Part shown: positions 53,082 through 55,307 of the stretch, piece by piece
How the letters are laid out: every line of letters starts with the position of its first letter
How positions within the stretch are numbered: the first letter of the stretch is position 1
Sequence record: MW650886.1
Reading direction: 5' to 3' (one strand)
Source: Escherichia phage vB_EcoM-ZQ1
Length of the DNA stretch: 64,000 bases
Position numbers and translations under genes: made by a program
The notes under the pieces: model-generated
Databases searched by the model: none
What the model saw: only the letters and a program-made list of their open reading frames with translations
What the model was told of the DNA's origin: nothing

Positions 53082-55307
53082 TCACCGTCTCAGCCATTCT
53101 TCCATAGACATACCAGAGCGTTCATCATAAACCTGAATTCCACCGAACCCTGAGATGTTCTCCACAGAGTGAGGATCTGGCGTCGACATCATACCCCCAA
53201 ATGGTAGCATCTGAGATTCTTCCATCGCAGACAACCGTCCTCTCATGTCCACAGAGATATTTGAATTGGTGAGATCACTAAACCATTCTTGTTTCACCGC
53301 CCATGCATACAACACGAGGGGCATTACACAGTCATCATGACAACCATCATCGGCTTCATACCTTGTTCCAGTCCATACGAATGTACTGAGTTCATCTATC
53401 GTGTCCTGGTCATCTATCACCAGCATTTCACGTTCAATCAGGGCTTTCAGGTTGGCACAGCCGTTTGTGCGCACCTTCTTGTTGGTATTGATACCAGGCT
53501 CAGGGCGGCGACCACCGATTCTCTTGCCTGTACCCTTGGTATCTGTTGTAGTGAATATGATCTCGGGATATTCAATTTCCTGATATAGAATTGTGATTAC
53601 CTGACCACCCACGTCGTTGTTGGTCTCGACTAGCATCGGGCACGTTCCATACTTCTCACCCATATCGGCGATTGTGTACGCATACATCATTGGAGGTATC
53701 GTGTTATTTCGATACTTGGCTGCGATCTTGTGAGGATAGTCTGTGATGTCGATAATGGTCAGTACAGAATAATCCCCTTCGACACCCTTGCCTGTATCTG
53801 CGATACCCATATAGATGCGCTTAGGATCGTAGTCGTGATAAATCTTGGTGAACTCGTTCGGCTCCTGGTACAGCTTCGAGGTCATCTTGTCCAGACACTT
53901 GGCAGGTATCAGTGATCCCACAGAACCACGGAACTTAATGCCAAATTCTTGATCGAAACGCGCATCACCCAGCTTCGCCCTTTGTTTGGATTCCCAGTCT
54001 GGATCTTTGGTGTACGTTGGAACACGATACCATGGGACCTCGGTGAGTTTGAAGTCGTTGTATTGTGGGTGTTCTGGGTTCGCCTTGGTGACGATGTCGT
54101 AGAACAACCCGCGCTGACCTTTCGGCGTACTGGTCAGAATACAACGTGAAGTCTCTGCAGATGCAATCGCCGGGAATGTAGACTCCCAGAATTCAAAGTC
54201 GTTTTCAATGAACGCCACTTCGTCCACATACAGGAGCGATACAGATCGACCACGGATGGAGTCGGAAGATGTCGCATAGGCGTAGATCTTTGATCCGTTT
54301 TCGAACTCGATCAGTGTGGAACCGAACTTCTCACAACCCTGTTGGAGGAAGAATGGCAAATCTTGATATGCTTTGCGAATACGATCTAGGATTTCAATCG
54401 CCTGCTTCTCTTTGTTCGCCAGTACTGCGATCTCTTTGTCGGAGTGGAACATCGCATACCAGAGCAGGAACGCTGCCACGACTGTCGTGTTGTGGCTGAG
54501 GAAGCCGTTGGTGTAGTAGCGCTGATCACTAGATTTCACCTGTAGGTCATACATGTGATGCGTCTCACCAGTCTGCCAAACCTCGCGGATTTCTTCTGGA
54601 CCTTCTGACGTCATGATGTATGACCCAGCATTCAGGTCTTTGGCAAATATCTCCTTCATTTCCGGAGTGAAGAATATATGTTCGTCGGCCACGTTAATTC
54701 GCCGCCCAGTAACAGTCACAATAACGAATTCCGCATATTTCTTCGTCTTATGCGCTGCGATAACCGGAACCCAGCCACTATCGGATTGCACAAAGTAACG
54801 TTTGCCAAAGCGGCTGTCCACGAACTTGTCATGGTTGCCAATGGTATTCAGCGGCACAGCGTGGTTGACGTCCTCGAAGCGGCTGTGAAGCTCCCCTATG
54901 GTTAGGAGCAACTGCTCTTGGCTGAGAGTATCGTAAACTGTGACAAGCGTGTCACCTTTTACACATTTCCCAGACTGACGAGCCTGGACGACCGCATTGA
55001 ATCGATAGTCCTGGAAGTCATGGAACAACTGCTTCTGATAATCGTGCATGTCAAAGAGGATGAAGCCTTTATCGATGGTCGTGATCTTGTAGTAGTTGGC
55101 AGCGAAGTAATGGGCGTCCATCGCACACTCGACGAACTCCGATTCTTGTTCGTCGGTTAGCATCAACTCCACACGAGGAGCGCGCACAGACGGCTTGCGC
55201 ATGAACGTTTGGTCCATACGCAGTCTGACGTCTGGTGTTTTAAAACCAGTTTTCTCTGGTGCCCAATCTATCTCTTTTTTATACGCCATCGTCTTCACCT
55301 TCTCCAT
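53082..55307 (-). CDS. 17: terminase large subunit, gp17-like, interrupted by a mini-intein
   Basis: exteins read ...VVQARQSGK / TTVVAAFLLW, matching T4 gp17 Walker A SRQLGKTTVVAIFLAHF. Confidence 0.85.
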   Translation of the reverse strand: MEKVKTMAYKKEIDWAPEKTGFKTPDVRLRMDQTFMRKPSVRAPRVELMLTDEQESEFVECAMDAHYFAANYYKITTIDKGFILFDMHDYQKQLFHDFQDYRFNAVVQARQSGKCVKGDTLVTVYDTLSQEQLLLTIGELHSRFEDVNHAVPLNTIGNHDKFVDSRFGKRYFVQSDSGWVPVIAAHKTKKYAEFVIVTVTGRRINVADEHIFFTPEMKEIFAKDLNAGSYIMTSEGPEEIREVWQTGETHHMYDLQVKSSDQRYYTNGFLSHNTTVVAAFLLWYAMFHSDKEIAVLANKEKQAIEILDRIRKAYQDLPFFLQQGCEKFGSTLIEFENGSKIYAYATSSDSIRGRSVSLLYVDEVAFIENDFEFWESTFPAIASAETSRCILTSTPKGQRGLFYDIVTKANPEHPQYNDFKLTEVPWYRVPTYTKDPDWESKQRAKLGDARFDQEFGIKFRGSVGSLIPAKCLDKMTSKLYQEPNEFTKIYHDYDPKRIYMGIADTGKGVEGDYSVLTIIDITDYPHKIAAKYRNNTIPPMMYAYTIADMGEKYGTCPMLVETNNDVGGQVITILYQEIEYPEIIFTTTDTKGTGKRIGGRRPEPGINTNKKVRTNGCANLKALIEREMLVIDDQDTIDELSTFVWTGTRYEADDGCHDDCVMPLVLYAWAVKQEWFSDLTNSNISVDMRGRLSAMEESQMLPFGGMMSTPDPHSVENISGFGGIQVYDERSGMSMEEWLRR
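54489..54965 (-). mobile_element. mini-intein (159 aa) in terminase Walker A P-loop
   Basis: starts Cys (CVKGDTLV), block-B-like INVADEHIFFT, block F/G YDLQV ... TNGFLSHN followed by Thr; no endonuclease domain. Confidence 0.75.

Follow-up and report, generated by a model that had tools for sequence, protein, structure and literature searches.

The window analysed here, a stretch of 64,000 nucleotides from Escherichia phage vB_EcoM-ZQ1 (GenBank MW650886.1), belongs to the Ackermannviridae, with 99% identity to Escherichia phages PC3 and PH4 of the subfamily Aglimvirinae (megablast). Its terL gene, encoding a large terminase of the T4 gp17 type, is found together with a gp16-type terS, neck and tail-sheath-stabiliser genes and the tail sheath gene, and is interrupted within the Walker A motif by an insert with the features of a mini-intein (Table 1). 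The whole of terL, insert included, is covered in 245 of 249 matching records (megablast), and no second related intein was found elsewhere within the window.

Table 1 Features of the terL region and other loci discussed in the text (window coordinates).
Feature	Position	Strand	Description
terL precursor, intein-containing	53082..55307	-	T4 gp17 type; 741 codons + stop
N-extein	54966..55307	-	N-terminal part of ATPase domain; ends in Walker A …ARQSGK, Lys = residue -1
Mini-intein, class-1-type	54489..54965	-	159 aa, without endonuclease domain
C-extein	53082..54488	-	Thr+1, then TVVAAFLLWYAMFH…, rest of ATPase domain, RNaseH-like nuclease domain
Recombinant patch, Kuttervirus SE14-like	54586..55008	-	Supported by informative sites and synonymous sites
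terS	55279..55977	-	gp16-type small terminase; overlaps terL start
Tail sheath gene	51134..53062		
LIMEstone1 F-LimVIII homologue	48475..50274	+	Free-standing homing endonuclease gene (HEG), sporadic distribution

Translation of the minus strand at 54489-54965 gives 159 codons reading CVKGDTLV…TNGFLSHN, which correspond to residues 115-273 of the 741-aa ORF and are flanked by …FNAVVQARQSGK and TTVVAAFLLWYAMFH…; a plus-strand reading of the same interval is ruled out by stop codons throughout. The interval given in the original prediction was therefore exact, and the strings that it quoted as block-B-like and block-F/G-like are present as written, but it left unstated that the gene lies on the minus strand. 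The true start of terL is more likely the second ATG, at 55289 (735 aa), which is preceded by ggagaagg and fits the MAY… start annotated in relatives; adopting it moves the residue numbers by six and has no other effect. Counting from the first ATG or from ATG 55289, the computed mass is 85.1 or 84.4 kDa for the precursor and 66.9 or 66.1 kDa for the spliced protein, with 18.2 kDa for the intein, matching the ~66 kDa (spliced) and ~18 kDa (excised) products anticipated earlier.

The interrupted ORF carries Pfam Terminase_6N and Terminase_6C domains and, once the 159 residues are removed in silico, the spliced protein matches T4 gp17 with E-values of 4e-72 (PDB 3ezk) and 5e-71 (3cpe), confirming the original assignment of the host ORF to the gp17-type large terminases. 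The match to gp17 (3ezk, 3cpe and 2o0h), which is itself without an intein, extends over the ATPase and nuclease domains, including SRQLGKTTVVA, and is gapless across the junction (arqsgkttvvaafllwyamf in the spliced protein, srqlgkttvvaiflahfvcf in T4 gp17). The insertion point lies between Lys and Thr of Walker A (ARQSGK/TTVV). An empty version of this site (RQSGK/TTVV, the intein columns being void of residues) is found in the intein-free Vibrio phage K446 and Aeromonas phage TSW001, the exteins of which are 52-57% identical to that of the window. Among the listed tblastn matches to the spliced ATPase segment, relatives with at least 89% identity align in two pieces and more distant ones in one. 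Excision had been predicted to restore a contiguous P-loop, and both the gapless gp17 alignment and the empty sites of K446 and TSW001 bear this out; a contiguous non-intein insertion was not seen in these homologues.

Searches with the single insert returned intein matches that were specific but slightly below curated cutoffs. Pfam Intein_splicing (PF14890) scored 28.8 bits within the ORF and, when the insert was searched by itself, 35.0 bits (cutoff 35.8), TIGR01445 scored 19.3 (cutoff 24.5) and TIGR01443 12.9 (cutoff 15.6), while a word-indexed search for homologues of the isolated insert recovered 2 proteins and phmmer against the PDB gave five weak matches, all five of them inteins. A family alignment was assembled from phage tblastn matches, comprising nine terL inserts from six Ackermannviridae genera and from Campylobacter, Delftia and Agrobacterium phages, to ~30% identity. 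Intein_splicing matches eight of these nine members, and the nine-sequence profile matched inteins and nothing else in the PDB (9/9 matches, including VidaL, 4.4e-11; gp41-1, 1.1e-10; and the Cat consensus atypical split intein, 2.6e-8). The AlphaFold2 model computed from the nine-insert alignment (pLDDT 92.2, pTM 0.85) has a HINT fold, with only inteins or HINT/BIL domains among its top 50 Foldseek matches in the PDB (e.g. VidaL, 4e-10; NpuDnaB; gp41-1; Mxe GyrA; maximum TM 0.82, to a TFIIB mini-intein). The proposal that the insert is an intein (Hint) domain is thus upheld by the modelled fold and the family profile, with curated HMMs applied to the single sequence giving specific matches just under their thresholds.

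The residues expected of a splicing domain are in place. Cys1 (block A) is shared by eight of the nine aligned homologues, Agrobacterium phage Atu_ph07 having Ser instead, and in block B (…VADEH96) His96 is invariant in all nine and falls in one column with the block B His residues of gp41-1, VidaL and CatC. Ala93 (A93-D-E-H96) stands where the consensus TxxH has Thr; Ala or Ser also occupies this position in the alignments with gp41-1, VidaL and Cat, and the substitution is a tolerated variant, off the textbook motif. His137 and Leu141 of block F (H137-M-Y-D140-L) are invariant in the nine, as are Ser157, His158 and Asn159 of block G (…NGFLS-H158-N159, followed by Thr+1), so the Cys start, His-Asn end and adjoining Thr noted originally are all present.

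In the model the HINT fold takes up all 159 residues, and Pfam/HMM searches of the ORF and of the insert gave no match to an endonuclease family. An endonuclease hidden out of frame or on the opposite strand was considered and rejected, as antisense ORFs within the insert are without a Pfam match. Because the fold uses the entire insert and an endonuclease match is absent, the insert as modelled is a mini-intein without a homing endonuclease, in keeping with the earlier view that it has no room for such a domain. BIL domains, which are found in variable proteins, usually have no +1 nucleophile and cleave rather than splice. Assignment of the insert to this class was rejected in view of the universally conserved motif, the conserved Thr/Ser at +1 and the clean empty-site homologues; BIL structures also appear well below inteins in the Foldseek list (ranks 32-38 and 50).

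The insert is very probably a functional cis-splicing mini-intein of the canonical class 1 type. Following the established class 1 pathway, TerL would be translated as a precursor of ~84-85 kDa in which an 18 kDa HINT domain splits the ATP-binding loop. Cys1, helped by His96 of block B, would undergo an N-S acyl shift to a thioester, which would then be attacked by the hydroxyl of Thr+1 (the Walker A Thr) to form a branched intermediate. Cyclisation of Asn159, with His158 and His137/Asp140 of block F as helpers, would free the intein, and an O-N acyl shift would create the native peptide bond, yielding a ~66 kDa TerL with an intact …RQSGKTT… P-loop. The precursor is predicted to be ATPase-inactive because the 18 kDa domain interrupts the P-loop, and ATP binding and DNA packaging would be expected of the spliced product only; from the position in Walker A we strongly infer that packaging depends on splicing, as originally suggested.

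Pairwise Nei-Gojobori estimates of dN/dS were 0.04-0.19 for the intein versus 0.01-0.07 for the C-extein. At the codon level the intein is thus under purifying selection, about threefold more relaxed than that on the terminase, which fits a domain that needs to fold and splice and is otherwise unconstrained. This level of constraint argues against a degenerate HINT-derived insertion that no longer splices and is either kept in the mature terminase or cleaves at one junction only, a reading to which the sub-cutoff HMM scores and the Thr to Ala change in block B might otherwise point, together with the literature, searches of which found no report of experimental splicing for any Ackermannviridae TerL intein. 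An 18 kDa domain in GK/T is also hard to square with the contiguous P-loop of the gp17 structures, and nucleophiles and assisting residues are all conserved from enterobacterial phages to those of Vibrio, Campylobacter, Delftia and Agrobacterium. The nearest solved relatives (gp41-1, VidaL and the Cat consensus) were deposited in the PDB as inteins and are splicing-active, and their alignments also show Ala or Ser at the block B Thr position. Loss of splicing is accordingly a most improbable explanation, and simple retention of a non-splicing insertion was rejected because the nucleophiles and the +1 residue are conserved and homologues with an empty site exist.

Purifying selection would also be compatible with conditional splicing (e.g. 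responsive to redox state at Cys1 or to temperature), the intein then acting as a switch that sets, after translation, when the packaging ATPase becomes active. All enterobacterial Ackermannviridae genera sampled carry the intein, with all listed matches of at least 89% extein identity aligning in two pieces, and regulatory roles of P-loop inteins have been discussed by Kelley et al. 2016 (PMC5050341). Nevertheless, no regulation-specific feature emerged among our results, the catalytic set includes a single Cys, the related phages K446, TSW001 and T4 thrive without the intein, and fixation would follow equally well if an element lodged in an essential motif is hard to delete precisely, making a switch of this kind an improbable addition to the basic splicing function.

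As a class 1 mini-intein the element would be expected to persist because imprecise loss would destroy the essential motif, and it could not home by itself, since it is without a homing endonuclease. It would instead be inherited within Ackermannviridae terL and exchanged among phages via ordinary homologous recombination only.

Intein and extein of the window have different closest relatives. The C-extein is most similar to that of Ag3/Limestonevirus (96-97% aa and ~90% nt identity), with an intein of 75% aa identity, versus 86% aa and 78% nt identity for the C-extein of Kuttervirus SE14, the intein of which is 97% (aa) and 93% (nt) identical. Informative sites delimit an SE14-like patch of 423 nt (Table 1), SE14-like at 104/109 sites within versus 75/379 outside (Fisher p≈6e-50), and the rest of terL is Ag3/Limestone-like. 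Synonymous divergence follows the same pattern, with dS of 0.34 in the intein and saturation in the extein for the window and SE14, and dS of 0.87 in the intein versus 0.46 in the extein for the window and Ag3. The patch extends ~45 nt beyond the intein on the upstream side and stops ~95 nt short of the intein 3′ end; because of this early end the intein of the window is itself, at the nucleotide level, a recombinant chimera. Comparable discordance is seen among other phages: SE14 and SFP10 have C-exteins that are aa-identical over the first 300 codons (dN = 0) and inteins that are 79% identical, and ISTP3 carries a 105-nt SE14-like patch within an SFP10-type intein (24/24 sites). Ag3 and Limestone share one intein allele (96% aa). 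Precise intein homing was rejected as the source of the discordance, as one boundary lies outside the intein and the other inside, and their positions differ among phages; the pattern is that of patchy homologous recombination.

Judged from these comparisons, mosaicism of the terL intein is established, alleles of ~75% identity having been swapped between subfamilies in short patches, in the window and independently in SE14 and ISTP3. That these three independent patches are centred on the intein, with discordant intein and extein histories, raises the question of mobility in trans, in which a free-standing HEG would cut in or near terL and provoke gene conversion. Such collaborative homing has been described for an intron in ICP1 terL, and HEGs have been reported as markers of genetic-exchange boundaries in phages (PMC10055350). 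Candidate nucleases are a NUMOD3 HEG (F-LimIX-type), found between terS and terL in Limestonevirus and SKML-39, and the sporadic F-LimVIII homologue of the window (Table 1). However, the patch boundaries miss the intein ends and vary among phages, as ordinary homologous recombination predicts, and Ag3 and Limestone carry the same allele although only the latter has a HEG between terS and terL. Among the ORFs of the window none adjacent to terL is a HEG, and none lies between terS and terL, because terS overlaps the terL start. Mobility in trans is thus possible but rather unlikely. We suggest with similar caution that the terL intein segment of Ackermannviridae may be a hot spot of horizontal allele exchange, perhaps triggered by free-standing HEGs such as those of the F-LimIX-type NUMOD3 and F-LimVIII kinds; if true, this would represent ‘collaborative homing’ for an intein instead of an intron.

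When 1.84 billion cluster representatives were searched exhaustively with the insert alone as query, 707 had E<=1e-3 and 317 had E<=1e-10, a set of relatives that by sequence similarity goes far beyond chance expectation. Nearly all of the best 147 of the 707 representatives end in …SHN, the +1 residue is Thr (87), Ser (56) or Cys (4) in all 147, and in 120 of these 147 the intein adjoins a TerL-type post-Walker-A helix. Contiguous inteins, typically with an RQxGK/C N-junction, account for 42 of the best 147. A further 92 start with Met and reach the intein end at residue 108-132, corresponding to C-halves of atypically split inteins. These C-halves begin ~45 residues into the intein, and the split point is the same as in Delftia phage PhiW-14, where TGA TAA, a hairpin and GGAG precede an ATG within the intein, and in Agrobacterium phage Atu_ph07, which has a TGATG overlap. 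The intein of the window is therefore an ordinary contiguous member of a large, well-studied family.

The element was also already known, being annotated in GenBank and published in relatives. In Salmonella phage Mooltan (GenBank MH688040) the gene is labelled ‘intein-containing terminase large subunit precursor’ and its mat_peptide feature ‘intein’ spans 477 nt with identical boundaries, and NCBI nr includes a 159-aa ‘intein [Salmonella phage Maynard / Marshall]’ with 76% identity. According to the 2013 genome paper on Marshall, which cites IPR003587 and IPR006141, the large terminase ‘is interrupted by an intein’ (PMC3853055), and the 2019 paper on Klebsiella phage Magnus reports the same terminase intein (PMC6763660). 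Lys/Thr was described as a ‘classic’ P-loop intein site by Kelley et al. 2016, who also reported that among mycobacteriophage proteins TerL is the one that most often hosts an intein, and that TerL inteins spliced efficiently in a reporter (PMC5050341).

With element and site established, the present analysis carries little scientific weight and its practical value lies in annotation. In GenBank most records of the family label the gene ‘terminase large subunit’, ‘hypothetical protein’ or even ‘pretoxin HINT domain protein’. TerL is a common phage marker, and the intein should be removed before TerL phylogenies or clustering, because intein and extein histories differ (97% vs 86% aa identity to SE14; 75% vs 97% to Ag3).

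The TerL inteins of Marshall, Maynard, Mooltan and Magnus share host gene, SGK/TT site, length (159 aa) and boundaries with that of the window and differ in the allele alone: the Mooltan/Maynard allele has 76% aa identity to the intein of the window and the SE14 allele 97%, the N-terminal ~127 codons of the window intein being ‘SE14-type’ within an Ag3/Limestone-type terL. The mycobacteriophage TerL1-a intein (PMC5050341) likewise separates the invariant Lys of Walker A from the nucleophilic Thr in a large terminase, but its host belongs to terminase_1 rather than gp17/terminase_6, and the two intein sequences are unrelated at family level; several mycobacteriophage TerL inteins also have active endonucleases, unlike that of the window. 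The nearest relatives in sequence and structure are the gp17 terminase split intein of Dassa et al. 2009 (an atypical split intein with a C-part of 122 residues), VidaL (6vgv), Cat (6dsl) and gp41-1 (6qaz). Atypically split inteins of the TerL type share with the window a conserved …HRYYTNGILSHN C-terminus and, in most cases, insertion at the same position of the TerL P-loop. Inteins of the VidaL, Cat, gp41-1 and Dassa type are split, whereas that of the window, a short relative of the atypical split inteins employed in protein engineering, is contiguous and would splice in cis.

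The intein region of terL, the T4 gp17-type large terminase gene, is a mosaic. Within the otherwise Ag3/Limestone-like gene lies a 423-nt patch resembling Kuttervirus SE14 (p≈6e-50), which begins in the N-extein and stops within the intein. Patches were also found in terL of SE14 and ISTP3; these are independent, with boundaries unlike those in the window. Intein alleles that are ~75% identical are being exchanged between subfamilies, despite the absence of an intein endonuclease.

Coordinates of features in or near terL in the window and in loci of other phages
Feature	Location	Strand	Remarks
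SE14-like patch in terL	window 54586..55008	(-)	comparison with SE14, Ag3, SFP10 and ISTP3
599-aa ORF	window 48475..50274	(+)	strand opposite to surrounding structural genes
NUMOD3-motif homing endonuclease gene, 292 aa	L009 1309..2187		Dickeya phage Ds25CZ; between terS and terL
terL with related intein	L004 78..2273		Campylobacter phage CP20
Two-gene terL with related P-loop intein	L003 1919..4195		Delftia phage PhiW-14
Two-gene terL with related P-loop intein	L005 1950..4171		Agrobacterium phage Atu_ph07

A candidate origin of double-strand breaks near the intein is the NUMOD3-motif homing endonuclease gene between terS (small terminase) and terL of relatives, identified in Ds25CZ, SKML-39 and other Limestoneviruses. 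The window carries no NUMOD3 homing endonuclease gene at this junction, where terS overlaps terL. The 599-aa ORF, ending 2.8 kb from the terL 3′ end, is probably a free-standing homing endonuclease: it matches DUF7487 and, weakly, DUF559/MTES_1575 (Vsr-like endonuclease), and its counterpart in LIMEstone1 is annotated ‘putative homing endonuclease F-LimVIII’. It was found in only 29 phage records, compared with 249 for terL.

Naming of terL is inconsistent across GenBank records of the phage family. Most give plain ‘terminase large subunit’, PC3, PH4 and YX22 have ‘hypothetical protein’, and Dickeya phages phiD3 and RC-2014 have ‘pretoxin HINT domain protein’; only a few records, all from one annotation group, carry correct intein/mat_peptide annotation. 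In the window, terL probably does not begin at ATG 55307 (-), the longest-ORF start, which the PC3 annotation adopts. ATG 55289 (-) is preceded by a Shine-Dalgarno-like ggagaagg and agrees with the annotated terL start of Mooltan, SE14, Ag3 and others.

In CP20, a related intein is inserted three residues before Lys|Thr (junctions …PRQ|C…SHN|SSKST…), with Ser as the first C-extein (+1) residue, and this position is a second insertion point within the same P-loop. In PhiW-14 and Atu_ph07, terL consists of two genes, broken ~42 residues into a related P-loop intein. At the PhiW-14 break, TGA TAA precedes a GC-rich hairpin, after which come GGAG and ATG in that order, and the N-terminal gene is wholly unannotated in the GenBank record; in Atu_ph07, stop and start overlap (TGATG) and the first intein residue is Ser (Ser1). 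Both look like naturally split inteins of an atypical type, and appear to be of the same kind as the atypically split inteins of Dassa et al. 2009.
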